Positions 6,437 through 26,647 of a DNA stretch of 56,288 bases are shown here, piece by piece. A model generated the notes under the pieces. It searched no databases, was not told where the DNA came from, and saw nothing but the letters and a program-made list of their open reading frames with translations. Made by a program: the position numbers and the translations under genes. Source of the DNA: a virus (lineage: Duplodnaviria; Caudoviricetes). How positions within the stretch are numbered: position 1 is the first letter of the stretch; every line of letters begins with the position of its first letter. The stretch is taken from IMG/VR virus record IMGVR_UViG_3300032893_000058, positions 1-56,288 of that record. The stretch is one strand, 5' to 3'.

Positions 6437-6610
6437 GTGCGCTATTCTTTCCGCAATACCGGCGGCACGCTGGTGACCGTTGTGGCTGACGACGAGAATC
6501 GTGCCCGCTTCCTCGCGATGGTCAAGCTGCACGGGCCGGTCCCGCCGCCCGTGCTTGGTATCATTCGCTGGACCGGCACCGGCCTCGACCTGATCGCCGC
6601 TGATGCCTAA
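6437..6610 (+). CDS. Small hypothetical protein (57 aa)
   Basis: GTG after a strong RBS; below the ORF-track cut-off; overlaps the primase start. Confidence 0.5.
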   Translation: MRYSFRNTGGTLVTVVADDENRARFLAMVKLHGPVPPPVLGIIRWTGTGLDLIAADA

Positions 6611-8837
6611 GCCGCGCCCGGTCGTCGTCGGCGCTTCTTCGCTGCCCGTGCTGCAGACGCTGGCCTGGCTGCGCCGCTTTAACTTCCGTCCCGTCGCGCT
6701 GCACCCGCGCCGCAAGGCCGCCGTGTCTCGCGCCTACGTCGATCTCGATTACAAGCCGCCGGACGACGAACTGTGGCAGCACAACGATTATGGCGTCGGC
6801 GTCGTCACCGGGCCGGCGCATTCGGGGCCGGTCGACGTCGATCTCGACTGCGAGGAAGCCGTCTATTTTGCCTCCGTGTTCTTGCCGCCGACGCCGGCCG
6901 TGTTCGGCAGAGAGTCCAAACGTGCGTCGCATTATTTATATCGTGTTGAAACGCCGACATTTGAAAAAAAAGCATTCAACGATCCGCGCAACAACGAATC
7001 CACCATCGTCGAAATGCGGGGCGATGCCGGCCATCAAACAGTGATGCCGGGCTCGATCCACGAGCAGACCGGCGAACTGATCCGCTGGGACAGCGACGAG
7101 AACCCCGACGTGCCGATGGTCGACGCCGCCGAACTCATTCGCGCCGTGCGCAAAGTCGCCGTCGCGGTGCTGGTGGTGCGTCACATCTGGCAGCCGGGCT
7201 TTCATAATTCTCCGTGTTTGAGTTTGTCCGGGCTGTTCTACTATCTTGACTGGTCGCTGGATGAAGCCGAGCAATTCATCGCCGCGGTGTGCGACTACAC
7301 CGACGATCGCGACAAGTCGCGGCTGCCCACGGTGCGCGCCACTTACAAGCGCGGCGAAGCCGGCAAGAAGGTGTCGGGTGCCGGCGTGCTGCGCAAACAA
7401 TTGAACGACGACAAGCTGGTCGATCGGCTGCTCGAGTGGGCCGGCTCGCCGTCAGTAAATTTGATCAACGATTACAATTCGCGCTGGGCGGTGGTGCCGG
7501 TCGGCGGCAAATTTCGCATTGCCGACACCGACGTGCTGCCGGGCCAGCCGCCGCTGTTCTACGGCAAGGAGGACTGGCTCAACCTGGTCGGCACCGACTT
7601 CACCGACATCGAAGGCAAGCCGGTGTTGCGCGGTAAGTTGTGGCTCACCAATCCGCGGCGCCGCGCTTACCGCGGCATCGACTTCGTGCCCGGCGCCGAC
7701 GACGGCCAGACTTTAAACCTGTGGACCGGCTGGGCGGTAGAGCCCAAGGCCGGCGACTGCAGCGCCTGGATCGAACTTTCGCGCGACGTTATTTGCGGTG
7801 GCGACAAACATTTGTTTCGCTGGCTGGCGCACTGGTTCGCCAACATCGTGCGCGAACCGTGCAACAAGTCGCTCACCGCGCTGGTTGTAATCAGTTCGCT
7901 CGAGGGCGCCGGCAAGACGCTGATGTTCGAATATTTCGGACGGATTCTCGGGCCGTCCTACGTCACCGTCACCAAGGAAAACCACATCGTCGGGCAGTTC
8001 AACCGGCATCTAGGCGGCGCGCTACTGCTACACTCCGAGGAAGCACTGTACGGTGGTGACGTCAAGCATGCCGGCATCATTCGCTCACTGATCACCGACC
8101 CGTGGCACATGATCGAGCCCAAAGGCGTCGACAGCCAGAAAGTGCGCAATTATCTGCGGCTGGCCTTGACCAGCAATAACATTCACGCGGCGCCGGCCCG
8201 GCCCAGCGACCGCCGCTACACCGTGATCGACATGAAGGAACGCCGCGCCAGCGACGATCTCATTACGCGGGTGTTGAAGGAATTGGACGGCGACGGGCCG
8301 GCGGCATTGTTCCAGGCGCTGCTCGATCTCGACTATGACCCGGCGCTCCCACGCGTCAACGTCAAGAACGACGCGCTGCTGAGCCTGAAATCGATCAACC
8401 TGCAGCCGATGGAGGCATGGTGGCTCGAGACGTTGCAGGACGGCTTGCTGCTGCCGGATTGCCTGAACTGGGCACAGAAGCCGGAAAAGGACGAGTGGCC
8501 GGAAACGGCGGCCGTGCCGGCGCTGCACGTCGCCATGGCGCTCAACCTGCGTGCCCGCAACGTGCGGTCGGTGCCGTCGGCACAGGCGCTGGCATTCAAC
8601 TTGGAGAAGTTCATCGGCCGGCCGTTTCACCGCTCGAAGCTGAGTTTCGATAATCCGCTGCTTGATGACTATCCGCCGGCAGTCAAGCAACTTAACGGCC
8701 GCATGACCAGCATCGTCAACGTGCCGGACCTGAACTCTTGCCGCGAGGCGTTCGAGCGGTTCATCGGCCAGGATTTCGACTGGCCGGACGAAGGGGAGAG
8801 GAACGATGGACGACGTGAGCCACACCGCGACTTCTGA
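6603..8837 (+). CDS. Bifunctional primase-polymerase / SF3-type (DUF5906/NrS-1-like) helicase
   Basis: Prim-Pol motifs GVVTG...DVDLD, SHYLY, QTVMPGSIH; helicase Walker A EGAGKT, Walker B HSEEA, IEPKG, TSN, DRRY. Confidence 0.9.
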   Translation: MPKPRPVVVGASSLPVLQTLAWLRRFNFRPVALHPRRKAAVSRAYVDLDYKPPDDELWQHNDYGVGVVTGPAHSGPVDVDLDCEEAVYFASVFLPPTPAVFGRESKRASHYLYRVETPTFEKKAFNDPRNNESTIVEMRGDAGHQTVMPGSIHEQTGELIRWDSDENPDVPMVDAAELIRAVRKVAVAVLVVRHIWQPGFHNSPCLSLSGLFYYLDWSLDEAEQFIAAVCDYTDDRDKSRLPTVRATYKRGEAGKKVSGAGVLRKQLNDDKLVDRLLEWAGSPSVNLINDYNSRWAVVPVGGKFRIADTDVLPGQPPLFYGKEDWLNLVGTDFTDIEGKPVLRGKLWLTNPRRRAYRGIDFVPGADDGQTLNLWTGWAVEPKAGDCSAWIELSRDVICGGDKHLFRWLAHWFANIVREPCNKSLTALVVISSLEGAGKTLMFEYFGRILGPSYVTVTKENHIVGQFNRHLGGALLLHSEEALYGGDVKHAGIIRSLITDPWHMIEPKGVDSQKVRNYLRLALTSNNIHAAPARPSDRRYTVIDMKERRASDDLITRVLKELDGDGPAALFQALLDLDYDPALPRVNVKNDALLSLKSINLQPMEAWWLETLQDGLLLPDCLNWAQKPEKDEWPETAAVPALHVAMALNLRARNVRSVPSAQALAFNLEKFIGRPFHRSKLSFDNPLLDDYPPAVKQLNGRMTSIVNVPDLNSCREAFERFIGQDFDWPDEGERNDGRREPHRDF

Positions 8838-15105: not shown

Positions 15106-16122
15106 ATGCCGAAAGCACAAGCAGCAAAGAAGTCGACCAAGCCGGCGGCGCCGCAGCGTCAGGCCGCCCAGCCCGCCCGTACCGCCACCAAGGCCGCGCA
15201 GACCGCGGCGCACCAGGGGCGCGAAGAAGAGCGCCGCCCGGTGCAGCAAGCCCAGCAGCGCGCCCAGGTTCCCGCGCGCCGCGAGCCGGCGCCGCTGCCG
15301 TCCGCTGCCGTCGTTTCCCTGCCCGCGTTCATGCGGCAGGACGCCGATCTCGGCAAGGAGAACATCGGCAAGGACGATATCGAAATTCCGCGGCTGAAAT
15401 TGATGCAAGGTTTGTCGCCGGAACTGATGGAATACGACGGCCTCAAGGCTGGCTACTTCTTCCACCCGGCGGCCGAGTTCATCTTTGACGGCCCGTTCCG
15501 CGCCGTGCCGATCTTTATGGACCAGCGCTACATCTTGTGGCGTCCGCGCGATGCCGGCGGCGGCATCTTGGCCCGCGCCGACGACGGCGTGCACTGGTCG
15601 CCGGCCGGTGGTGATTTCACCGTCCAACTCGACAAGAAGGACGGCGGTCATACCGTCAAGTGGAAGCTGGCGCCGACCGTCGCCCAGTCCGGGCTGGCTA
15701 ACTGGGGCACTATGAACCCGGCCGACCCCAACTCGCCGCCGGCCGCGACGCTGATGTATAATTTCCTGCTGGCGTTCCCGGACGAACCCGACCTGATGCC
15801 GGCGGTGCTGTCGTTCCAGCGCTCGTCGATCAAGATGGGGCGCCGGTTCAACACCAAGCTTAAGACGGTGCGCGCGCCGATCTTTGGCACCATCTGGGAA
15901 TTCCGGTCGGCGGAGGATCACAACAATTCCGGCCAGACGTTCTTCAACATCGACGTCAAGTCGGCCGGGCTGGTCGAGGACCAGGATCAATACTCGCAGT
16001 ACCGGGCGATGTACGAGACGTTCAGCCAGAAGGGCCTGAACATCAAGGATTTGGAGTCAATCGGCGATGAAGAAAGCGCAATCGGTGGCGCCCCTGACAA
16101 TACTGACAGCCCTGCTATCTAG
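15106..16122 (+). CDS. Putative phage single-stranded DNA-binding/annealing protein
   Basis: DDIEIPRLKLMQGLSPE motif, acidic C-terminus, position before PolA. Confidence 0.6.
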   Translation: MPKAQAAKKSTKPAAPQRQAAQPARTATKAAQTAAHQGREEERRPVQQAQQRAQVPARREPAPLPSAAVVSLPAFMRQDADLGKENIGKDDIEIPRLKLMQGLSPELMEYDGLKAGYFFHPAAEFIFDGPFRAVPIFMDQRYILWRPRDAGGGILARADDGVHWSPAGGDFTVQLDKKDGGHTVKWKLAPTVAQSGLANWGTMNPADPNSPPAATLMYNFLLAFPDEPDLMPAVLSFQRSSIKMGRRFNTKLKTVRAPIFGTIWEFRSAEDHNNSGQTFFNIDVKSAGLVEDQDQYSQYRAMYETFSQKGLNIKDLESIGDEESAIGGAPDNTDSPAI

Positions 16123-16925: not shown

Positions 16926-17135
16926 ATGGACTGGATTTTAATAGCGGTCGTCTCTGGTTCGATCATCGTCAGCGGACATAGCACGGAGGAAGCGTGCCTT
17001 GGTCGCGCGGCAATGTTGAAGAAAGACCAGAAAATCGAGGCCAAATGTGTGTCGTCGCCGACGAGGTACGGCAGTGTTACACTCTACGACAATGGCTGCA
17101 GAATCCTCCGTTTAGACGGATCGCCGGCTTGCTGA
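16926..17135 (+). CDS. Small Cys-containing hypothetical protein
   Basis: AAGGAG RBS; hydrophobic N-terminus. Confidence 0.55.
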   Translation: MDWILIAVVSGSIIVSGHSTEEACLGRAAMLKKDQKIEAKCVSSPTRYGSVTLYDNGCRILRLDGSPAC

Positions 17136-17285
17136 CGCAGCGCCAGTTCCGCGCCCTCAAGTGGCGCGAAGTCTACCGTGACGACCGCATCGTCGTCTTC
17201 TCAGGGGGTCTAGATGGCTTCAGCCTCGTCCACGTCAAGCAAGGCCAAAAAGTTACTAACATGTACCGTGTACGAGGACGTTGGT

Positions 17286-19214
17286 ATGACAGCCCGTCCG
17301 AAGCGGTCCTGGCCTACAACGGGCGCCCCCGACGAGACGCTGCAGACCGTGCTAAATCGGTTGAAGGACCCGACCCAGTCGACGCGCTGCCTTGACGTCG
17401 AAACGTCCGGGCTTGACTGGCGTAACAACGCCATCGTCGGCTACGTCGTCACGTTCAGCGGCGACCCGCGCGATTCCTATTACGTGCCGTTTCGCCACGC
17501 CGGTAATGCCAACGTCGGGGGTCGCGACGGTCTGAAATCGCCGACCGGCTGGGATGGCAAGCTGTTGCCGGGCGAAAAGGAACTGGTGACGGCGCTCGAC
17601 CAGCCGGGCACGCTGATGTTCGGACACAATCTGGCGTTTGATTTGCGGTTCAAGGCGCGCGTCGGCTTTAAGTTTCAACCGAAGTTCGAAGATACCATAA
17701 TCAACGAACCGCTGCTCGACGAGTATGCGACGTTCTCGCTGGTGGCCTGTGCCGCGCGCCACAACGTGCAGGCCAAGAAGGGCACCGAACTTTATGCTTA
17801 CATGGCTGACAAGCTGGGCGAGAAGAACGACAAGAACATTATGGGCCATTTCTGGCGTCTGTCCGGTGACGATCCGATGGCGGTCGAATATGCCTGCGGC
17901 GACGGCACGTCGACCTGGCAATTGCGCGACGCGCAGATGGTTGAAATTCAGGCGCAGGAATTAGGCCGCGTTCATGCTGTCGAAAGTCGCCTGATCCCGG
18001 TGCTGGCGCGCATGATGGTGCGCGGCGTCAAGGTCGACGAGGAACGCCTGGAATGGCTGATCGGGCACATCGACGATGAAGTCGAAAAACTGAAGAACGA
18101 ATTTCCGCCCGATTTCAACGCACTGTCGCCGACCGACGTGCAGGCGTGGATGGAGAAGCACGGCCATACCGACTGGCCACGCACGGCGCCGTCGCGGACC
18201 CGGCCGCAAGGCTCGCCGTCGTTCACGTCGCACTGGCTCGAGACGCACGAGGCCGGCCGCAAGATCATCAAACTACGCAAGTGGGAGAACCTCAATTCGA
18301 CCTTTTGCCATCCGCTGCGCGATCGGCACCTGTGGCACGGGCGGGTGCACTGCACCTTTAACCAGCTTCGCAACGACGAGTTCGGCACCGTGACCGGGCG
18401 ATTGTCGAGCAACGACCCCAACATGCAACAGGTGCCCAAGCACGACGAGGACTTGGGCCGGCTGTACCGGTCGGTGTTCGTGCCGGATTACGGATTGTGG
18501 GGCGAGCGCGACTACAGTCAGATCGAGCCGCGGCTGATGGCCTGGTATACGCGGGCGCGGGTGTTCCTCGACGACTATCGCAACAACCCGGACGCCGACA
18601 GCCACACCGCAGTGGCCAAGGATGCCAAGGGCGCGGCGTGGGACGACATGTCGCCGGCCGAGCAAAAGCACTTCCGCAACACTTGGGCCAAGCGCGTCAA
18701 TCAGACCGTGATCACGGGGGGCGGTAAGAACGCGCTGATCAAAAAATACAAGATGTCCGAGCAAGAAGCGATGCAGGCGCTGGTGCGCTATTTCAGGACC
18801 GTGCCTGAATTGAAGCCATTTCAGAAGAAGGCGGCGCGGTTGTTCCGCGAGCGCGGCTACGTGCGCGACGTGCTGGGGCGCCGGGCGCACTTGCGCGATC
18901 CGGACAAGGACTACACCGCGATGAACCGGCTGCTGCAGATGAGCAACGCCAGCATGCTCAAACTTAAGATGGCCGAAGTGCAGGAGTATCTGGACAGCGA
19001 GCCACAGGCGCAGGTCGAACTGCTTTTAAATTGTCACGACGCGCTGTCGTTCCAGTTTGCACTTGACAAGCGGTCGCGGGCCGCGTATGCTGAGTGCAAG
19101 CATATCATGGAGGACTTCTCAAGTGACGCGGCGATGGTCAAGATCGACCTGCCGATCAAGGTCGACGAGGGCGACGGCCCGAATTGGAGCGTCGCAACAT
19201 ACGGGGAAGATTGA
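17286..19214 (+). CDS. polA: Family A DNA polymerase with 3'-5' exonuclease, atypical motif B
   Basis: ExoI DVETSG, ExoII HNLAFD, ExoIII YACGD; TGRLSS.DPNMQQ; motif A DYSQIEPR; motif B AKRVNQTVITG; motif C HDA. Confidence 0.95.
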   Translation: MTARPKRSWPTTGAPDETLQTVLNRLKDPTQSTRCLDVETSGLDWRNNAIVGYVVTFSGDPRDSYYVPFRHAGNANVGGRDGLKSPTGWDGKLLPGEKELVTALDQPGTLMFGHNLAFDLRFKARVGFKFQPKFEDTIINEPLLDEYATFSLVACAARHNVQAKKGTELYAYMADKLGEKNDKNIMGHFWRLSGDDPMAVEYACGDGTSTWQLRDAQMVEIQAQELGRVHAVESRLIPVLARMMVRGVKVDEERLEWLIGHIDDEVEKLKNEFPPDFNALSPTDVQAWMEKHGHTDWPRTAPSRTRPQGSPSFTSHWLETHEAGRKIIKLRKWENLNSTFCHPLRDRHLWHGRVHCTFNQLRNDEFGTVTGRLSSNDPNMQQVPKHDEDLGRLYRSVFVPDYGLWGERDYSQIEPRLMAWYTRARVFLDDYRNNPDADSHTAVAKDAKGAAWDDMSPAEQKHFRNTWAKRVNQTVITGGGKNALIKKYKMSEQEAMQALVRYFRTVPELKPFQKKAARLFRERGYVRDVLGRRAHLRDPDKDYTAMNRLLQMSNASMLKLKMAEVQEYLDSEPQAQVELLLNCHDALSFQFALDKRSRAAYAECKHIMEDFSSDAAMVKIDLPIKVDEGDGPNWSVATYGED

Positions 19215-19376
19215 TGTGGTATCTTGGCGGAAAGATGCGACAGTCGAAGCAAATCGTCGCGGCGATCGACAATTTTAGTTTGTACGTTGAGCCATTCTGC
19301 GGGGCGTTATGGTCGGCTACCGCCGTAATGAAGACTTTTCCGGGGCGCCGATACCTATTAAACCATGCTTATCCGG

Positions 19377-19405
19377 TTGACACATGCAGACACTTGTGCT
19401 AGTAT
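19377..19405 (+). promoter_or_regulatory. IS inward promoter overlapping the left IR
   Basis: TTGACA-N17-TAGTAT with extended TG. Confidence 0.65.
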
Positions 19406-19450
19406 CATGGGCGTTGGTGGCGATCACGCCACCCTCCTTGGAGGGTAAAA

Positions 19451-19774
19451 ATGGCAAACGCTCTGGTACATCCGACTAAAGTTATTGATGCGATTAATTG
19501 CGCCACGGCTGCTGAAGTTATGGCCGCAATTGAGCAGATGGGCATGAGTCTCGATTTGGCTTGCACGGTTAAAGTCAGCCTCATCGAAGAAACGCTTTCT
19601 GATGGCTCTAAAGCCCAAAGCATCGTCCTTCGTTCGGAGGATGACGCCGATTTCGCGAGAAATGTCGCGGGGTTGAATGAAGATATTTTCTTCCGGGCTG
19701 ACCTGCGCCTTCTGCGGTCTACCCTTCGCGAGTATCGACGAGAGGCAATAGCCTTGGTCGAGAAGGGGGTCTGA
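19451..19774 (+). CDS. IS passenger gene 1, hypothetical
   Basis: GGAGGG RBS; lies inside the IRs. Confidence 0.65.
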   Translation: MANALVHPTKVIDAINCATAAEVMAAIEQMGMSLDLACTVKVSLIEETLSDGSKAQSIVLRSEDDADFARNVAGLNEDIFFRADLRLLRSTLREYRREAIALVEKGV

Positions 19775-19777
19775 ACC

Positions 19778-20008
19778 ATGACCAAGGCTACCGAAGGTGC
19801 GCACGAAGAAATCGACCTGTTGGGCCGTGAAATCGAGGGCCTCAATGATCAGTGCAATGAATTGGAGGCTGCCCTTCGAGAGTCGTTGAAATTGCAAAGC
19901 CACTACGCTGCGCTGCTGAATGACTATGACGGCGGCAAAAGAATGGGATTTAGCTCCGTCGAGGCGTGGCTCAATCGGCTTCGCTCTCTTAAAAGTGGGG
20001 AGGCATAG
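19778..20008 (+). CDS. IS passenger gene 2, coiled-coil hypothetical
   Basis: Lies inside the IRs; abuts the transposase start. Confidence 0.65.
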   Translation: MTKATEGAHEEIDLLGREIEGLNDQCNELEAALRESLKLQSHYAALLNDYDGGKRMGFSSVEAWLNRLRSLKSGEA

Positions 20009-21052
20009 ATGCCTCCCCATGCCGATGTTCTCCAATGGGAACATCTGCCGTTCCCCAAGTCGCTCCGGGATTTCCAGCGGCTTTTCCCGACTGATACTGC
20101 CTGCGCCCGCTGGCTTGAGGGTGCTAAGTGGCCGAAGGGCTTTGAGTGCCCGCATTGCCACGAAAAGGGCGACCCGCAACGGCTGGAATCCCGTCCGGGC
20201 GTCTTGGCTTGCCGATCCTGCCGTAAGCAAACGTCGCTGACGGTCGGCACGGTGATGGAGCGGACACATACGCCGCTCGCAACATGGTTTTGGGCGGCCT
20301 ACCTCGTTTCCAGCCTGACACCCGGCATTTCGGCCGTTCAACTGCAACGGCAGGTCGGACTTACAAGGTACGAGACGGCCTTCCAAATCCTGCACAAGCT
20401 CCGCGCTGGCATGGTGCGGCCAAACCGCGACCAGATCGGCGGCAATCTGGCGCGCGGCGATCATGTCGAGGTCGATGAATGTTATATCGGCGGCGAGACG
20501 CGCGGTAAGGGCAAAGGCGTGCACGCCGACGAAAAGACCCTGGTTGTTGCTGCGGTCGAAGTCCGCACGCGACCGGCCAAGAAGGGCGATAAGCCTATGC
20601 GGCGCGGCGGCCGATATGCTGGCCGTCTGCGGCTGGAAATCGCGCCGACACGTGGCGAGAAATCCCTCTGCGGCTTTGTGGAGGCTGCCGTCGCGCCGGG
20701 CGCAATCGTCATCACGGATGCGGCCCCGGCTTATAGGAACCTCGAAAAGCTCGGCTATGCCCATCTGCCGGTGATTGAAGGCGGCAATCCGGAAGTCGCC
20801 GAAGAATATCTGCCCATCGTCCACTTGGTTTTCAGCAACCTGAAAGCTTGGCTGCAGGGCACCCATCACGGTCGCGTCGAGCCCAAGCACCTGCAGACTT
20901 ATCTCAACGAGTTCACCTTCCGCTTTAACCGGCGGTTCTACCCATTCAACGCTTTCCGCTCGTTGCTCGGCATCGGGGCAAACGGCGAAGCTCCGACCTA
21001 TGATGGGCTCTATAGCGGGAAGTGGAAGCATCGGACGCTCGATCATGACTGA
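20009..21052 (+). CDS. tnp: IS1595-family transposase
   Basis: Zn ribbon CPHC/CRSC, HTH, VEVDECY, ITD, LPIVH (His as third catalytic residue), YLNEFTFRFNRR. Confidence 0.95.
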   Translation: MPPHADVLQWEHLPFPKSLRDFQRLFPTDTACARWLEGAKWPKGFECPHCHEKGDPQRLESRPGVLACRSCRKQTSLTVGTVMERTHTPLATWFWAAYLVSSLTPGISAVQLQRQVGLTRYETAFQILHKLRAGMVRPNRDQIGGNLARGDHVEVDECYIGGETRGKGKGVHADEKTLVVAAVEVRTRPAKKGDKPMRRGGRYAGRLRLEIAPTRGEKSLCGFVEAAVAPGAIVITDAAPAYRNLEKLGYAHLPVIEGGNPEVAEEYLPIVHLVFSNLKAWLQGTHHGRVEPKHLQTYLNEFTFRFNRRFYPFNAFRSLLGIGANGEAPTYDGLYSGKWKHRTLDHD

Positions 21053-21645
21053 TCAACCAATAGAGGCTGCATGTTCAAACCGGATAAGCATGTATTAAAC
21101 GATATAAACCCGTACTTGATAAACATGTGGCACGCCGCTTATGACGGATGGAACCCCCCGGAAAAGGTGACGGAACGCGATTATATTTATTACAATAAAA
21201 CACGCCCGATAAATGATCCAATGACAGGTTATGTTGGGTTTGCGTGGTCATTTGGGGGTAAATTCTTTGGTGGCGCGGCACGCACCAATGGCAGGATAAA
21301 AGGATCATATAAATCAACGCGCGATAAGATCGATGTCATACGCGCGAATAATGTGCGGTTCACATGCGGGCATTTTTCCTTGGTTAAACCGCAATCGCAG
21401 TCAGTTGTTTATCTGGACCCACCTTATGAGGCCCGCACCCATCAATCACATTTGAGCAAAAGGTTCAATTACGACGAATATTTTATCTACGCCGAGAATC
21501 TTGCAAAACGTCACGTGGTGATTGCTACGTCGTTTACCAACGAACGCAAATGGAAGGTGTTGCACAATTATGGCGATACTGTCGTGCGCCATCACGCCGG
21601 AAAAGCCCCCGATGGTACAATAGAGCTGCTGTTACGGGTAGGAAA

Positions 21646-22149
21646 ATGAAGGAAACCGCCATTCAAGCCATCGTCTGCGACGTGGTCAACGAGGCCGGCG
21701 GCTTCGCCATGAAGATGGACAACGCGTTCGTCGGCGGCGTGGCGGACCTGCTGATAAAATTGCCGAATTACAGGCAATTTAAAGGTTGGCGCGGTCGTGG
21801 TGACGCAGCTAGTTTTCTTGAAGTTAAGCAACGGGTCCGTCCGCGCACCGGCAATGCGACGTTCTCGCTCGACGTGACGCACCTGCAGGACAAGTTCTTG
21901 CGCCGAGCCGACGCCGCCGGCATCCCGTGCGGTGTGGCATCGTTCATGCAAGAAGGCACCGGGTCGGGGCTGAAATTGTGGCTGCACGTGATGACCTGGC
22001 GCGTCGCTAGCTACGAGGACGGTGTCGGTGCCAAAGCGTACACGACCTGTCCGGACGCACACATCCTGCTGGGGCGCAAGGGCGAGCGCGAAGGCCCGCT
22101 GCTCAGCGCACTATATGACTGGCACCAAAAATGGAGGGAAGAGCGATGA
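21646..22149 (+). CDS. PD-(D/E)xK nuclease (VRR-NUC / resolvase-like)
   Basis: MKETAIQ...GVADL...FLEVK...LQ..FL pattern. Confidence 0.7.
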   Translation: MKETAIQAIVCDVVNEAGGFAMKMDNAFVGGVADLLIKLPNYRQFKGWRGRGDAASFLEVKQRVRPRTGNATFSLDVTHLQDKFLRRADAAGIPCGVASFMQEGTGSGLKLWLHVMTWRVASYEDGVGAKAYTTCPDAHILLGRKGEREGPLLSALYDWHQKWREER

Positions 22150-22655
22150 CCTTGGGAACCGTCGACTATCGCTGCGACGAGTGCAACGCTGACTATAAGA
22201 ATTGCGGCGGTGGCGACCTGATACAATGTCCCAAGAACCGCGGCCCTAATAAAGGGTGCGGGTTGCGCATGGTGCGTCACACGGACGAAATCGTAGCCGG
22301 TAATGCCGAAACTGCGGCGCTGTTGTCGCAGCCAGAAATTACCGCCAAAGCGTCGTGGTTATTGGCCGAAGGCGGCCAGTCTTTGGCCTCCATCCTGTCC
22401 GACCGCGGCAAGACCCACGGCGATTTCGGCGACAACGCTGAAATTGCGCTGCAGATTCGCGACGTGATGCGCAGTGCCAAGCCGCACTGGTCGAACCTGT
22501 CAGCCGAGCAGCGACTGGCGCTTGAAGAGATCGCGCTCAAGATCGCCCGCATCTGTAGCGGCGGCAACTGGGAGGCGGAACACTGGCGCGACATCCAAGG
22601 CTACGCTAAGCTGGGCGAAAACGTGTGCAACAGCAGGAACGCGGCGCAAGAATGA
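22146..22655 (+). CDS. DUF6378-like protein with N-terminal Zn ribbon
   Basis: RGKTHGDF...KIARI..G....HWRDIQGYA; CxxC N-terminus. Confidence 0.7.
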   Translation: MTLGTVDYRCDECNADYKNCGGGDLIQCPKNRGPNKGCGLRMVRHTDEIVAGNAETAALLSQPEITAKASWLLAEGGQSLASILSDRGKTHGDFGDNAEIALQIRDVMRSAKPHWSNLSAEQRLALEEIALKIARICSGGNWEAEHWRDIQGYAKLGENVCNSRNAAQE

Positions 22656-22809
22656 AACTGCTTTGTTATTGGTTTGGTCATAAATGGAAATGGTCAGAGT
22701 GGTGGACACCGCCAACTGTACCGCCTAGTCCGTGTCTTTATCGCTGGAAAACGTGCCAGCGATGCGGAGAATCTTATCGTCAGCACGTTTTAAAATAGGA
22801 GATCAGATC

Positions 22810-23901
22810 ATGTGGCTCGATCAATTCTGTCAGCGCGGCAAGGCCGACGTGATCGTCGGCGGGCAATGGGGCTCGGAAGGCAAGGGCGCCGCGGCGGCCT
22901 ATCTGGCGCGGCGGTTAGCCGAAGGTTTTCGCTCCTACGATGTTTACAGCACCAATGCCGGCGCCCAGGCCGGACACACATCGGTTCACAGGGGACGCAA
23001 GCGCGTCGTGTTTCATTTGCCGACCGCGGCACTGATCGCGCGGGATCACGATTTTCCTGGACTGATCCACTTGAACGGCGGGTCGATCATCGACCCCGAC
23101 GTGTTGGAACAGGAACTTAAGGACAACGACCTGACCACCACCGACGTTCAAATTCACGCCAATGCCGCGGTGATCACGCAGGACTGCAAGGACGCCGAGG
23201 GCTTGGCTCATTCAGTGCAGACCAAGATTGCTTCGACCCGCAAGGGCGTCGGCGAGGCGCTGGCGCGCAAGGTGCTGCGATCCGGCGTGATCGCCAAGGA
23301 CCACCCGTTCCTGCGCCAGTTCGTGCGCCCGATACCGTGGCGCATGTTGAGCATTGACCGGGTCCTGGTTGAAGTGCCGCAAGGCATCGGGCTGTCGGTC
23401 GACGGGCAATTTTACCCGCACTGCACGTCGCGCAATTGCACGCTGCAGCAGGGGCTGGCCGATGCCGGCATTCACCCGCGCCAGTTCGGCGCCTCGATGT
23501 TGGTGCTGCGTACCACGCCGATCAGAGTCGGCAACATTGTCGAATCGTTGAGTATTGACACGCCATTTGGCGCGGTACGCAGTAAACCCACTGTGCTTGG
23601 CACGTCCGGCGGCTACTATGCTGACCAGCGGGAATTGTCGTGGAACGAATTAGGCGTGCCGCCGGAAATTACCACCGTGACCAAGCGCGTGCGCCGCGTG
23701 TTCTCGTTCTCGGGTCGGCAGGCGCGTGAAGCCATAATGCTGACGCGCCCTGACGTGGTACATCTGACGTTCTGCGATTACCCGGTTAACGTGGCTGAAA
23801 TCACGATCAGCATTATCAACACGGCGGAGCATTTCAGGCTTGAGCCTAAGGTGTTGTTCCAATACGGGCCGACGACTGACGACGTTCAGGAGGAAATGTG
23901 A
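22810..23901 (+). CDS. purZ: PurZ-type (PurZ0-like) adenylosuccinate-synthetase homolog
   Basis: GGQWGSEGKG (Ser where PurA has the catalytic Asp), AGHT, YPHCTSR, PIRVG, TTVTKRVRRV, LTFCD; short 363-aa form; ATG 22810 after AGGAG. Confidence 0.85.
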   Translation: MWLDQFCQRGKADVIVGGQWGSEGKGAAAAYLARRLAEGFRSYDVYSTNAGAQAGHTSVHRGRKRVVFHLPTAALIARDHDFPGLIHLNGGSIIDPDVLEQELKDNDLTTTDVQIHANAAVITQDCKDAEGLAHSVQTKIASTRKGVGEALARKVLRSGVIAKDHPFLRQFVRPIPWRMLSIDRVLVEVPQGIGLSVDGQFYPHCTSRNCTLQQGLADAGIHPRQFGASMLVLRTTPIRVGNIVESLSIDTPFGAVRSKPTVLGTSGGYYADQRELSWNELGVPPEITTVTKRVRRVFSFSGRQAREAIMLTRPDVVHLTFCDYPVNVAEITISIINTAEHFRLEPKVLFQYGPTTDDVQEEM

Positions 23902-24212
23902 GCCGCACCACGCTGTCCGACCGCCGGTTGTCAATAACGGCCAAACTGACACACATCAAGGCTGACGGCGGCGAATTGCACGTCATCGCTACCTTCGGAC
24001 TTGACAGAGGACAGGTGCGTGAAGTTTTTTGCAGTTCATTCAAGGACGGTGCCGACGTGCGGGGCCTGGTCATCGACGCCTGCGTCTGCATGTCGTTGTT
24101 GCTGCAACACGGGTATTCGGTGCGGGACCTGAAGGGCAAGTTGATCCCGGCGCCGCAGTCGGTGCTGGCGACGCTGGTCGACGCGGCGATAGAGATAGAG
24201 GGTGAAAAATGA
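23898..24212 (+). CDS. TSCPD-like domain protein (class II RNR C-terminal-like)
   Basis: G.VREVF....K.G.D...L..D.....SLLLQHG pattern. Confidence 0.65.
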   Translation: MSRTTLSDRRLSITAKLTHIKADGGELHVIATFGLDRGQVREVFCSSFKDGADVRGLVIDACVCMSLLLQHGYSVRDLKGKLIPAPQSVLATLVDAAIEIEGEK

Positions 24213-24598
24213 GCGAACCATCAGCCAGACAACAATTTGAAAATAAATACGGCGTGCCGACTGAAGTGTATTGCATGAAATGTGACAATTGTTGCTTACG
24301 TATTGACGGTTCAGTAATTTCACCTGAACGCATCCGGCCGACAGTGGCTGCTTTTGCTGTTGCTATGGAGGCCAAACTTCGCAAAAATGACCACAAGACC
24401 GCGTGGCGCGACTTGCCGGTCGAGGCGCTGTTTCGGCAGTTGCTGATTGAACTTGAGGAATTCAAGGTCGCTGACGAGTTTCTCAACGTGTCCGAGGCCC
24501 GTAAGGAACTGGTCGATCTGGCCAATTTTTGCCTCATCCTGCACGACCGTCTCGGCATGCTCGACCAGGATAAGAACCGCCATGCCCAACCAAAGTGA
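24209..24598 (+). CDS. MazG-like all-alpha NTP pyrophosphohydrolase (candidate MazZ analog)
   Basis: IELEEF...KELVDLANF (ExxE...ExxD metal motif). Confidence 0.6.
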   Translation: MSEPSARQQFENKYGVPTEVYCMKCDNCCLRIDGSVISPERIRPTVAAFAVAMEAKLRKNDHKTAWRDLPVEALFRQLLIELEEFKVADEFLNVSEARKELVDLANFCLILHDRLGMLDQDKNRHAQPK

Positions 24599-25223
24599 AC
24601 TGATCCAGATGTTTCCGCCCGAACTGCGCACGGCGTCGGTCGTGCCGCGTTGGTCGGTGTTGTGGACGCTGACGCGCGATACCATCGCCAACCACAGTTT
24701 TTATGTGGCGATATATGCGCGGTCCATCGCCCGGCTGATCAAGTGGCGCAGCTCAAATTACGCTATGTTGATATATTTGGCGTTGACCCACGATCTGGAC
24801 GAGACGATCACGGGCGATATCGTGTCGCCGATCAAGTCGGAAATCGTGGACCGCGACCGCTATGACGCGCTGGTGGCGCGCAAGATGCGCGAGCGGCTGC
24901 CTGACATCGAGGCCGAACTGTCGGTATGGGCTAATACGACTGGCCGGGGCGCCTCCTTCGGCCACGTCGGGGCGGAGCAACAATATGACGAAGCCTGGAA
25001 AATCATCGCCGTGGCCGATCGCCTTGACGCGCTGCTGTTTCTGATCGGCGAGCAGCGCATGGGCAACGGCGTCATTGCGCCGCGCATTCCGGACGCGCAA
25101 AACCGTCTGCACGCGGCGTTCATGGAACTGCCGAAGGTCAAGCAGGAACTGGAAGCATTGTGGCAGTGCGTAATGCTGCCGGTGATCCGGGAACACGGCG
25201 ACACGGGAGGGAACGGCGTTTAA
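24582..25223 (+). CDS. HD-domain nucleotide phosphohydrolase (YfbR/DatZ-like)
   Basis: VPRW...ANHSF...THDLDETITGDIVSPIK...VADRLDA; true start ATG 24582. Confidence 0.85.
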   Translation: MPNQSELIQMFPPELRTASVVPRWSVLWTLTRDTIANHSFYVAIYARSIARLIKWRSSNYAMLIYLALTHDLDETITGDIVSPIKSEIVDRDRYDALVARKMRERLPDIEAELSVWANTTGRGASFGHVGAEQQYDEAWKIIAVADRLDALLFLIGEQRMGNGVIAPRIPDAQNRLHAAFMELPKVKQELEALWQCVMLPVIREHGDTGGNGV

Positions 25224-26647
25224 TGCGCTGGCACCTGAACCACGCCGTACACGGCACGAAGCCTTGGGCCGTGCAGCATGCCTATCTCGACGCTGCGGCC
25301 GGACGCCAGCGCTACGGCAATTTTTCGCAGCAGGGGCTGGGCAAGACCGCCGACACGCTCAACGAATTCATTGACTTCGAGGACGTGGACCTGTGCGTCG
25401 TGCTGGCGCCGTCCAGCTTCATGGCCGACTGGCCGCTGGCGCCGGCCGAGTGGGGCGCCGGTTTCTTGCGCACCGGCATGTGGGGGCGCGACGACTTGCC
25501 CTTCGACTGGGACTGCGGCCTGTACTCCATCGCGCACGAGACGCTGCGCGGGTCGAAGCGCGCTCGCGACGAACTGCTGGAATTATTTGAAAAGCGACGC
25601 TGCATGCTGGTGTTCGACGAGGGCACCGGTATCAAGGATGCAAATTCAGTGTTGGCGCGGTACGTTGTCGGCGCCCTGTCCAAGGAAGCCGTATACACGC
25701 GGGTGCTCAACGGCACGCCAATAGTGCAGGACGCGCTCGACTACTTTGCACAACTGCGCCTGCTGGGCGAATGCAACGGCATGAATCCTTACGCCTTCCG
25801 CAACCGGTTTTGCCAGATGGGGGGCTTCAAGGGTAAACAGGTCAAAGGCATTCGCAACGAAGACGAATTGGGCCGCATCCTCGACCGCTGCTCGTTCCGA
25901 GCGCTGAAACGCGACTGGCGCAAGGACCTGCCGCCGCAGATCGACCAGCCCATTCATCTTGAAATGACCGACAGCCAGCGCAAGCACTATCATACGATGA
26001 TGGAAGAGTTTTATGCGCTGGTCGGCGACGACGAAGAAGTCAGCGCTGAACTGGTGTTGACCCAGCGCCTTAAACTGCAACAAATCTCATCCTGCATGCT
26101 GATGGACAAGGGTAAGGTGCACTGGCTGGAATTGCCGAAGAACAATCCGAAACTGCGCGCCGCGTTCGACCTGATGGAGACGGGCAACGGCAAGATGATC
26201 GTCGTCTATTACTTCGACCCGTCCGGCCGCATGCTGATCGAACAATTTCAAGAAGCCGGATATGCCCCGGCCTGGATCACGGGCGGCATGACGGCCGAGG
26301 ACATCGTGGTACAGAAGGCAAAGTTCAACAACGATTCGTCGTGCCGGGTGCTCATCGGACAGATTGACCAGACCAGCCGCGGTCACACGCTCGTCGGCAA
26401 GCCGGGCAACGACCGCTGCTCGCGCACCTATTATTACGAGACGGACCTGAGCCTGATGCACCGGCTGCAGATGAACGACCGCAATCATCGTGGCGAGCAG
26501 GACGAGACGTGCTACATTTACGATCCCATCGCGTCGCCAATCGACCAGTTAAACGTCGACATCTTGACGCGTAAGAAGACCCAGGCCGACGGAATGGACG
26601 AACTGGTGCGATTGATAAGGGAGCAAAAGCATGGCCGAGCAGCTTAA
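25223..26647 (+). CDS. SNF2-family helicase
   Basis: QGLGKT, VFDEG, LNGTP, Q..DRNHR; TAATG coupling. Confidence 0.9.
   Translation: MRWHLNHAVHGTKPWAVQHAYLDAAAGRQRYGNFSQQGLGKTADTLNEFIDFEDVDLCVVLAPSSFMADWPLAPAEWGAGFLRTGMWGRDDLPFDWDCGLYSIAHETLRGSKRARDELLELFEKRRCMLVFDEGTGIKDANSVLARYVVGALSKEAVYTRVLNGTPIVQDALDYFAQLRLLGECNGMNPYAFRNRFCQMGGFKGKQVKGIRNEDELGRILDRCSFRALKRDWRKDLPPQIDQPIHLEMTDSQRKHYHTMMEEFYALVGDDEEVSAELVLTQRLKLQQISSCMLMDKGKVHWLELPKNNPKLRAAFDLMETGNGKMIVVYYFDPSGRMLIEQFQEAGYAPAWITGGMTAEDIVVQKAKFNNDSSCRVLIGQIDQTSRGHTLVGKPGNDRCSRTYYYETDLSLMHRLQMNDRNHRGEQDETCYIYDPIASPIDQLNVDILTRKKTQADGMDELVRLIREQKHGRAA

Follow-up and report, generated by a model that had tools for sequence, protein, structure and literature searches.

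We analysed a window of 56,288 nucleotides (nt), which is the whole of the IMG/VR virus record IMGVR_UViG_3300032893_000058 (Duplodnaviria; Caudoviricetes), a record rated complete and carrying direct terminal repeats. At 17,214-19,214 on its plus strand, on which all features given below also lie, the window encodes a family A DNA polymerase (PolA) with a 3'-5' exonuclease domain, a protein of 666 residues that we call P0001. Judging from its motifs, the nucleotide pocket of this enzyme is remodelled at positions 711, 762, 766 and 883 of the E. coli numbering. As placed by phylogeny and sequence identity, P0001 belongs to a large and nearly entirely uncultured clade, which is a third PolA lineage linked to PurZ, separate from the phiVC8-like and the Wayne-like DpoZ polymerases. 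We consider it likely that the open reading frame (ORF) encodes the proofreading replicative polymerase of a tailed phage with a genome in which 2-aminoadenine (Z) replaces adenine, and that its pocket was rebuilt stepwise within this third lineage.

The assignment to the PolA superfamily rests on both profile and fold. Residues 289-659 match Pfam DNA_pol_A PF00476 (E 5.4e-53), and P0001 matches the PHROG family phrog_17, 'DNA polymerase' (E 2.7e-85). The AlphaFold2 model, made with a 34-sequence alignment of the clade (alignment A1), has a mean predicted local distance difference test score (pLDDT) of 89.9 and a predicted template modelling (TM) score (pTM) of 0.86, with disorder confined to residues 1-32. 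When this model was submitted to Foldseek, the top structure was the Klenow fragment 1kfs (TM 0.83, E 1.1e-31); Klenow and Bst Pol I were the best structural matches, with TM-scores of 0.82-0.84 normalised by target, and the phiVC8 DpoZ structure 7PBK came at rank 5 (TM 0.73). A phmmer search of the PDB also aligned P0001 with Klenow (E 4.7e-33).

D433, D609, R396 (the TGR Arg), R488, K493, N571 and Q575 of P0001 align with their Klenow counterparts; in alignment A1, D433, D609, K493, R488, R396, Q575 and H608 are invariant and N571 is nearly so. The exonuclease residues (17,394-17,903) behave in the same way, E63, D143, Y226 and D230 being invariant in A1 and D61 nearly invariant; we take D61/E63 to be Exo I, D143 Exo II and Y226/D230 Exo III. 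A pseudogene or an inactive enzyme was rejected on account of these conserved catalytic and exonuclease residues, together with the confident model. The start of the protein is uncertain and would be M1 at 17,214 or M25 (17,286), or a codon nearby; since residues 1-32 are disordered in the model, the true start may be M25 or close to it. A 133-residue ORF at 16,994-17,395 overlaps the initial 180 nt of the annotated PolA frame. The real start probably lies downstream of 17,214.

The most unusual part of the protein is helix O with motif B, R488-N-T-W-A-K493-R-V-N-Q497-T498-V-I-T501-G-G-G (18,675-18,725; translation RNTWAKRVNQTVITGGG), whose assignment rests on translation, phmmer and MAFFT. 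In the phmmer alignment 'akrvnqtvitgggknal' is paired with Klenow 'akainfgliygmsafgl' at the top posterior probability, so that K-R-V-N-Q-T-V-I-T-G of the window stands opposite K-A-I-N-F-G-L-I-Y-G of Klenow. We take K493, N496 and G502 to be the E. coli residues K758, N761 and G767, and Q497, T498 and T501 to replace F762, G763 and Y766, which gives the substitutions F762Q, G763T and Y766T. In Klenow-type enzymes, positions 762 and 766 line the nascent base-pair and sugar pocket. In the model of P0001, residues 481-500 form a single helix, followed by a turn (501-504) and the next helix (505-512), a predicted layout that is as expected for helices O and O1. We also observed that the window PolA and its closest subclade have the O-helix Arg (R488) five residues ahead of K493 instead of four, by a one-residue insertion (R-N-x-x-A/G-K), whereas more distant clade members have the normal Arg-Lys spacing.

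The other motifs combine retained and altered residues. Motif A, D433-Y-S-Q-I-E438-P439-R (18,510-18,533; translation and phmmer), lies in a stretch that is translated as RDYSQIEPRLM (18,507-18,539); it retains the catalytic Asp and the steric-gate Glu, and P439 just past the gate replaces an aromatic or aliphatic residue. Motif 6, N571-R-L-L-Q575-M-S-N578-A-S (18,924-18,953; phmmer and alignment A1), keeps its Asn and Gln and has N578 in place of the usual Ala or Ser, with N578 and A579 as invariant in A1 as Q575. Motif C, H608-D609-A610 (19,035-19,043; translation, phmmer and MAFFT), is HDA instead of HDE, the translation of 19,026-19,052 being LNCHDALSF; presumably H608 is H881, D609 is D882 and A610 replaces E883. 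A sequence-only reading of this DNA had drawn attention to 18,675-19,045, which runs from the R488 codon to just beyond A610, and both motifs that it described there, K-R-V-N-Q-T-V-I-T-G and HDA, were confirmed by our translations and by the Klenow alignment of motif B. Its further remark, that phage PolAs usually have F, Y or L at 762 and keep Y766, agrees with the published passages on these positions: only F, Y or L was found at 'B3' (762) across 19 PolA clusters (Czernecki 2023, PMC10201439), and the tyrosine of 'B4' (766) was called 'otherwise strictly conserved' (Czernecki 2021, PMC8599892). Nowhere in its main text does Czernecki 2023 mention 'glutamine'. P0001, with Q497 and T501, has neither of these canonical residues, which are a conserved trait of known PolA subfamilies and not a criterion of the superfamily.

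The signature is shared widely among relatives. Of the 8,000 candidates scored in a search of 5.8 billion proteins, 1,619 reached E <= 1e-20, and the best 120 of these (47-100% identity to P0001) were aligned with MAFFT. Position 762 was Q in 116/120 and M in 4/120, and position 766 was T in 113/120, S in 6/120 and A in 1/120. Over the 122 rows of this alignment, motif C was HDA in 80, HDD in 29 and HDS in 13, and HDE was found in 0. With the signature this widespread among the best 120 homologues, the variant is not a matter of chance or of sequencing error. We also searched exhaustively the representatives at 50% identity and obtained 612 proteins at E <= 1e-30, with scores that break after about the first 90 entries. 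Above the break, 762 is Q, M or L and rarely F, 766 is T, N, Y, S or others, and motif C is nearly always HD[S/A/D]; below it, representatives have F or L at 762, Y (in a few cases F) at 766, and HDE. Five proteins outside the clade (P0232, P0234, P0250, P0253 and P0262) have L762, F766 and HDE, Phe at B4 being the hallmark common to both known DpoZ clades.

A phylogeny was computed with IQ-TREE (LG+G4; 78 rows, 596 columns; supports given as ultrafast bootstrap (UFBoot)/Shimodaira-Hasegawa-like approximate likelihood ratio test (SH-aLRT)). The window's clade comprises 58 rows with a support of 100/99; the phiVC8-like DpoZ clade (phiVC8, BCSR129, DMU1, PMBT28 and VLCpiS6a) has 100/100 and the canonical PurZ-free PolA group 100/99, and Wayne DpoZ, on a very long branch, was used as outgroup. 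FastTree and a quick IQ-TREE search gave the same main clades. The sequence-only reading had suggested that the polymerase was possibly distinct from the described DpoZ clades and that a phylogeny with DpoZ and other phage PolAs would tell; the window's clade is indeed separate in the tree, with an identity of 25.6% to phiVC8 DpoZ and no helix-O insertion. Identity to Wayne DpoZ is 26% over 215 residues (E 3e-5), to the PolA of the cultured Ochrobactrum phage vB_OspP_OH 32.8%, and to that of the PurZ-free phage R5C 28.9%. In the phage collection, we found no isolate nearer to P0001 than vB_OspP_OH, which is the clade's only cultured member in the collections searched. Membership in the phiVC8-like or Wayne-like DpoZ groups was rejected on the tree, the identities and the defining motifs.

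The states at 762 and 766 can be followed along the branches of the clade. Basal PurZ-positive branches have L762/Y766/HDE (L032, L036, L043, L051) or M762/N766 (L040-L042). A fully supported M762/T766 group (L031, L033, L035 and others) is sister to the Q762/T766 subclade, which contains the window PolA (38 rows, 100/100); the M762/T766 group includes the vB_OspP_OH group, in which 762 is M or L and 766 is T or S. Within the Q/T subclade three lineages changed again: L093, PurZ-positive and 73% identical to the window PolA, has M762/L763, the PurZ-positive L159/L166 have L762, and L110/L113, from contigs without PurZ, have M762/N766 on a long stem (0.56). L052, the other PurZ-free lineage in the T/S766 part of the tree, has N766. 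The Pro after the steric-gate Glu (711) tracks non-Tyr766 almost perfectly, Tyr766 members having an aromatic residue there, and this co-variation suggests that these parts of the pocket were rebuilt in a coupled way and did not drift independently. We propose that E883 would have been lost first (HDE to HDS, HDA or HDD), that Y766 would next have become Thr, coupled to Pro directly after the steric-gate Glu, and that F/L762 would then have changed to Met and finally to Gln; the window PolA, with Q497, T498, T501, GGG, P439 and A610, would represent the most derived state. As read from these alignments, the remodelling of the pocket is lineage-wide, real and selected, in a PolA clade that travels with the Z cluster.

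To describe this linkage, 79 IMG/VR loci, 80 JGI/ENA metagenome loci and vB_OspP_OH were searched with tblastn for PurZ, DatZ and MazZ. Removal of PolA duplicates reduced 161 loci to 133 unique ones, 131 of which include motif B; clade members were those with at least 32% identity to P0001 (outgroup PolAs have at most 31%), and a PurZ-negative call required at least 4 kb of downstream sequence. As a validation, the PurZ search over whole records was positive for 5/5 known PurZ phages and for 0/5 PurZ-free outgroup isolates. Among the 108 unique loci of the clade, 78 were PurZ-positive, 4 were PurZ-negative and 26 had too little downstream sequence. For the Q762/T766 form (67 unique loci), PurZ was present in 52 and absent in 0, the other 15 being uninformative, which bears out the co-occurrence with purZ that the sequence-only reading had proposed to look for. 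The outgroup, 23 loci that are all F762/Y766, gave PurZ in 0/20, with 3 having too little sequence. A Fisher test on the raw locus counts gives p 1e-17; it ignores shared ancestry and we do not rely on it. PurZ starts 359-3,518 nt past the PolA stop (median 976), the maximum being that of the window because an insertion sequence (IS) and a methyltransferase gene lie between. Of the 51 PurZ-positive loci with at least 6 kb downstream, 46 gave a match for DatZ and 41 for MazZ.

The four PurZ-negative clade loci are L052, L057, L111 and L113, and PurZ was not found in the L057 record, which is 74% complete. In L111/L113 a single small ORF separates the PolA gene from the SNF2 helicase gene downstream, and in L052 and L113 the helicase follows PolA with one or two small ORFs between. 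These PurZ-free lineages are nested in the PurZ-linked clade, and look as if the whole Z cassette had either been cut out or never been acquired. Upstream of PolA, L113 encodes a class II ribonucleotide reductase.

The window PolA can be compared with several known systems. The phiVC8-like DpoZ (cluster #18, DpoZ-2, structure 7PBK) is, like P0001, a proofreading PolA of about 630-670 residues encoded next to PurZ, MazZ and DatZ, in which the Tyr at the end of helix O is missing and 762 is non-aromatic; phiVC8 itself has HDS, without the motif C Glu. However, that group has A-K-Q-x-N-L-G/S/A-M-I/V-F-N with a helix-O insertion, a pattern not present in the window PolA. According to the passages on its active site, phiVC8 DpoZ carries L at B3 and F at B4, and its helix O is interrupted by an insertion (PMC8599892); the two residues are L455/F459, whereas the window has Q/T, a Pro after the steric gate, and a neighbourhood with PrimPol, gp33/gp34-like genes and an SNF2 helicase. 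Thus P0001 shares with the phiVC8-like group a genome with PurZ and DatZ, and neither its phylogenetic grouping nor its L/F pair and insertion. A preference for Z has been measured for phiVC8 DpoZ, whereas the window PolA is known here from its sequence. The Wayne-like DpoZ (cluster #19, DpoZ-1) is likewise a PolA from a phage that carries a PurZ-family gene; it has lost the Tyr hydroxyl at B4 (F) and has HDS, but it reads N-F-S-L-I-F-G with F762/F766, where the window has T at 766 and does not contain this pattern. It is described as related to D29-like actinophage polymerases and as linked to PurZ0 and dUTPase-type pool enzymes and not to DatZ/MazZ; P0001 is not close to Wayne/D29-like PolAs and has no F at B4.

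Nearer to the window stands the vB_OspP_OH DNA polymerase I (QIG66084), which belongs to the same clade and shares with the window the order of the genes around PurZ, an NTP pyrophosphohydrolase and an HD nucleotidase; it has M762/S766 and HDS and has lost even N761, whereas the window has Q/T. In the passages of the 2020 description that deal with these genes, 'DNA polymerase I' and 'adenylosuccinate synthase' are treated as ordinary, with no link to Z (PMC7139368). The catalytic and exonuclease motifs of Klenow and Bst Pol I all align with the window PolA at about 24-25% identity, but Klenow-type enzymes have F762, G763, Y766, E883 and a non-Pro residue after the steric gate, and the window differs at all of these. 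Cyanophage S-2L, with PrimPol, DatZ, MazZ and PurZ, follows the same Z-cluster logic, and a PrimPol-family gene is also present in the window; S-2L has no PolA, unlike the window phage, in which PolA is strongly conserved. Two DpoZ groups are recognised in the text of a 2026 Nucleic Acids Research (NAR) paper (PMC12884076). In the literature consulted, we found no description of a Q/T or vB_OspP_OH-type PurZ-linked PolA clade. Two 'novel DpoZ homologs' from aquatic metagenomes, stated to raise Z incorporation in E. coli (bioRxiv 2025.10.22.683976), might belong to the window's clade; short motif strings were not found in the main text of that preprint, which gives its DpoZ sequences as a supplementary figure.

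The reading that we consider likely, a replicative polymerase of a Z-genome phage, would operate as follows. The phage would carry a full gene set for the replacement of A by Z, namely PurZ, a MazZ-like pyrophosphohydrolase and a DatZ-like dATPase, and the PolA lineage would have been inherited together with this cluster, in a fixed gene order of PrimPol, gp33/gp34-like genes, PolA, Z cluster and SNF2 helicase. The enzyme would copy Z:T DNA, and the main barrier against adenine would be formed, as in cyanophage S-2L, by the pool enzymes DatZ, MazZ and PurZ; adenine exclusion would be shared with these enzymes and probably dominated by them. That the pocket was remodelled in adaptation to substrate and template with Z only, probably with some preference for dZTP over dATP, has in our opinion an even chance, and no single residue would act as a switch. 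Since few evolutionary events lie behind the association with PurZ, to call the window PolA 'Z-adapted' is a reasonable hypothesis and no more.

Several observations weigh against this reading. PurZ-positive clade members with L/Y, M/N, M/T and L/T exist, and the basal ones that keep L762/Y766/HDE indicate that the odd residues are not needed beside a Z cluster; in addition, the PurZ-positive L093 and L159/L166 did not keep Q762. Conversely, Tyr766 is lost in PurZ-free members: L052, in whose record, of 100% completeness by CheckV, PurZ was not found, has Asn, and so do the contig fragments L111/L113, in which PurZ was also not found. The state of PurZ changes about four times on the tree, so that shared ancestry alone can explain the co-occurrence, and a comparison of PurZ with the loss of Tyr766 over independent pairs had only 4 usable pairs (sign-test p 0.5-1) and thus no power. 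Finally, the union of the phiVC8-like DpoZ with the window's clade has a support of only 59/7, by which a sister relation is neither supported nor rejected, and the tree set does not include phiJL001-like PolAs, reported to be the nearest PurZ-free relatives of phiVC8 DpoZ. With this support a third independent origin is not proven, only a third distinct clade.

Most of these points would also suit the view that Q/T/HDA is a mere lineage marker, a compensated drift with no distinction between dZTP and dATP, PurZ, MazZ and DatZ alone excluding adenine. S-2L is described as achieving full substitution without a Z-specific polymerase (PMC10201439), and the passages on phiVC8 DpoZ report no single active-site determinant even there (PMC8599892); DatZ and MazZ accompany PurZ at most loci with enough flank, the basal PurZ-positive members are canonical, L093 and L159/L166 changed Q762 and yet kept PurZ, and the PurZ-free L052 and L111/L113 still lack Tyr766. 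However, Q762/T766 is nearly invariant down to about 40% identity, which implies selection over drift, and both losses of PurZ in the T766 part of the tree coincide with a change of T766 to Asn, in L110/L113 on the long stem mentioned above. Moreover, the Tyr hydroxyl is lost in all three PurZ-linked PolA groups. We take this view seriously, and think it on balance somewhat improbable. A stronger role of the pocket is harder to defend. Q497, T498 and T501 with P439 and A610 could form a new pocket that senses or accommodates the minor-groove 2-amino group of Z and discriminates Z from A at the active site, the loss of the Tyr766 hydroxyl being a convergent hallmark of Z-PolAs; we judge this unlikely. 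It would set the lineage apart from phiVC8 DpoZ, for which base-pair stability and proofreading were invoked in place of a single determinant. Equally doubtful to us is the narrower form, implied by the sequence-only reading, that Q497 and T501 directly read this group or make room for it and are the main determinants of Z selectivity. The positions do face the nascent base pair and the sugar in Klenow-type enzymes, as said above, the co-occurrence of Q/T with PurZ is perfect where it can be tested (52 versus 0), and in both known DpoZ clades B4 has changed from Y to F, with loss of the Tyr hydroxyl (PMC8599892). But PurZ-positive members with L/Y, M/T and L/T exist, and Q762 arose once on the tree, a count of the trait being inflated by reversions. 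In its discussion of B4, Czernecki 2023 judged the change unlikely to affect A/Z discrimination (PMC10201439).

We also considered whether the window PolA has degenerated or has only an accessory role such as repair, being of low activity or fidelity after the loss of E883 and Y766, with PrimPol as the real replicase as proposed for S-2L. In favour of this, Glu is missing at 883, the phage has a PrimPol gene, and a Bst Y714S structure with a G:T mismatch (3hpo) is among the matches of P0001; Tyr766-to-Ser/Ala changes are mutator alleles in Klenow and Bst Pol I. We find this very improbable, because the metal-binding, phosphate-binding and exonuclease residues are conserved clade-wide, the window PrimPol carries a fused D5-type helicase domain and so resembles primase-helicases that work for a separate polymerase, and the strong conservation of PolA argues for an essential role, its presence in every locus being due to the construction of the search. 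In addition, phiVC8 DpoZ is reported to be active with HDS (PMC8599892). As to whether the window PolA is only a divergent phiVC8-like DpoZ (DpoZ-2), already covered by the existing classification, the best tree has both groups on one side of a branch, and the passages of the NAR paper assign every PolA from a PurZ phage among the NCBI viral genomes to one group, DpoZ-2, maybe including vB_OspP_OH (PMC12884076). Yet this joining branch is the one supported at 59/7, the two groups are reciprocally monophyletic (100/100 and 100/99), the 25.6% identity to phiVC8 DpoZ is lower than that to PurZ-free polymerases, and L455/F459 and the helix-O insertion are not present; furthermore, phiVC8-like isolates share at least 41% mutual identity, after which the values drop to about 27%. 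Such an assignment thus seems to us improbable.

Replication of Z-DNA is known for no more than two PolA lineages. The present clade would add a third natural sample that far exceeds these in size and diversity (about 90 clusters at 50% identity, 108 unique loci), and its graded 762/766 series of L/Y, M/N, M/T and Q/T, together with the lineages that lost PurZ, forms a ready-made mutational series for the question which pocket residues matter in the copying of Z:T pairs. Compared with the described DpoZ groups, what is new is the Q/T PurZ-linked clade, PurZ-linked PolA as such being already known. The clade could supply new enzymes for the production of Z-DNA. It also suggests that family A polymerases can work without F/Y/L762, Tyr766 and Glu883. 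This matters for the engineering of polymerases and for metagenomic surveys in which residue 762 serves as a marker.

The genes around PolA were then annotated. Upstream, a PrimPol/D5-type primase-helicase is encoded at 6,603-8,837 (Pfam Prim-Pol and DUF5906; phrog_1156, DNA primase), and a Pam3 gp34-like protein at 15,106-16,122 (PF23977, 4.5e-47) recurs upstream of PolA across the whole clade and serves as a synteny marker; a Pam3 gp33-like gene too lies upstream of PolA. The sequence-only reading had placed the polymerase next to a PurZ cluster, and we found a PurZ/MazZ-like/DatZ replication module downstream. PurZ (2-aminoadenylosuccinate synthetase; 22,732-23,901; PF00709, 4.2e-26; phrog_1211, 8e-56) has the PurZ proteins of known Z phages as its best matches. 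Its G-S-E-G-K-G aligns with G-S14-T-G-K-G of phiVC8 PurZ, with Ser at the S14 position, where we assume that it replaces the catalytic Asp of PurA. S14 is named as a hallmark of PurZ in bioRxiv 2025.10.22.683976. A small ORF separates PurZ from a MazZ-like NTP pyrophosphohydrolase (24,209-24,598), a weak assignment which rests on a BLASTP match to phiOH_p33 (35% over 63 residues, E 6e-9), annotated as NTP pyrophosphohydrolase; this ORF has positional homologues in relatives and no Pfam match. It is followed at 24,447-25,223, with an uncertain start codon, by a DatZ-like HD-domain dATP triphosphohydrolase (YfbR-like 1.8e-17; phrog_7076, 1.1e-15). The window thus contains the components of a Z-biosynthesis cluster: PurZ with Ser, a DatZ-like protein and, weakly, a MazZ-like one. 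The module of PolA, Z cluster and helicase is closed by an SNF2-family helicase (25,160-26,647; Pfam and PHROG), after which comes a UvrD helicase. Directly upstream of PurZ lies a DUF6378 protein (22,131-22,655; below the Pfam cutoff; phrog_16943, 3.3e-18), present upstream of PurZ in 16/79 viral-contig loci, which may be a further component of the Z cluster. A nuclease-like ORF at 21,550-22,149 matches phrog_93 endonuclease weakly (7.4e-05), and in dozens of related loci tblastn gave matches to it at the same position, between PolA and PurZ.

Between PolA and these genes an adenine methyltransferase gene is split by an insertion sequence. Its N-terminal fragment of 50 residues (19,214-19,363), which we take by eye to resemble the N-terminus of Dam-like N6-adenine methyltransferases, starts at the PolA stop; stop and start overlap as ATGA (19,212-19,216), which suggests translational coupling of PolA and methyltransferase. 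The C-terminal part, of the D12 class, is found at 21,071-21,649 (PF02086, profile positions 155-227 of 253; also PHROG), and uninterrupted homologues are present in L093, L125, L126 and L160. The interrupting element (19,364-21,093) is of the IS1595 family (DDE_Tnp_IS1595, 3.2e-33), with terminal inverted repeats, a transposase ORF at 20,009-21,052 and an 8-bp target duplication, TATTAAAC, at 19,356-19,363 and 21,094-21,101, across which the methyltransferase reading frame runs on. A broken adenine methylase in a phage that is probably without adenine makes a curious pairing. The element has about 66-70% nucleotide identity to ISAcr1-type copies on alphaproteobacterial plasmids (Sphingomonadales, Acidiphilium), and L173, a distant clade PolA (33%), lies on a 3.5-kb contig binned with a Methylotenera metagenome-assembled genome; naming a host from this contig or from the plasmid likeness of 66-70% was rejected, both hints being too weak.

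Finally, many PolAs of the clade are long, with 857-987 residues (P0099, P0124, P0125, P0129-P0131, P0137, P0140, P0146, P0156, P0160, P0165 and P0167). Their HMMER matches fall in two stretches that are interrupted around query residue 407-437, which is at motif A or shortly ahead of it, and P0099 has Hint, intein-splicing and HNH Pfam domains. From these domains and from their position, the inserts look like inteins or homing endonucleases lodged at the polymerase active site.

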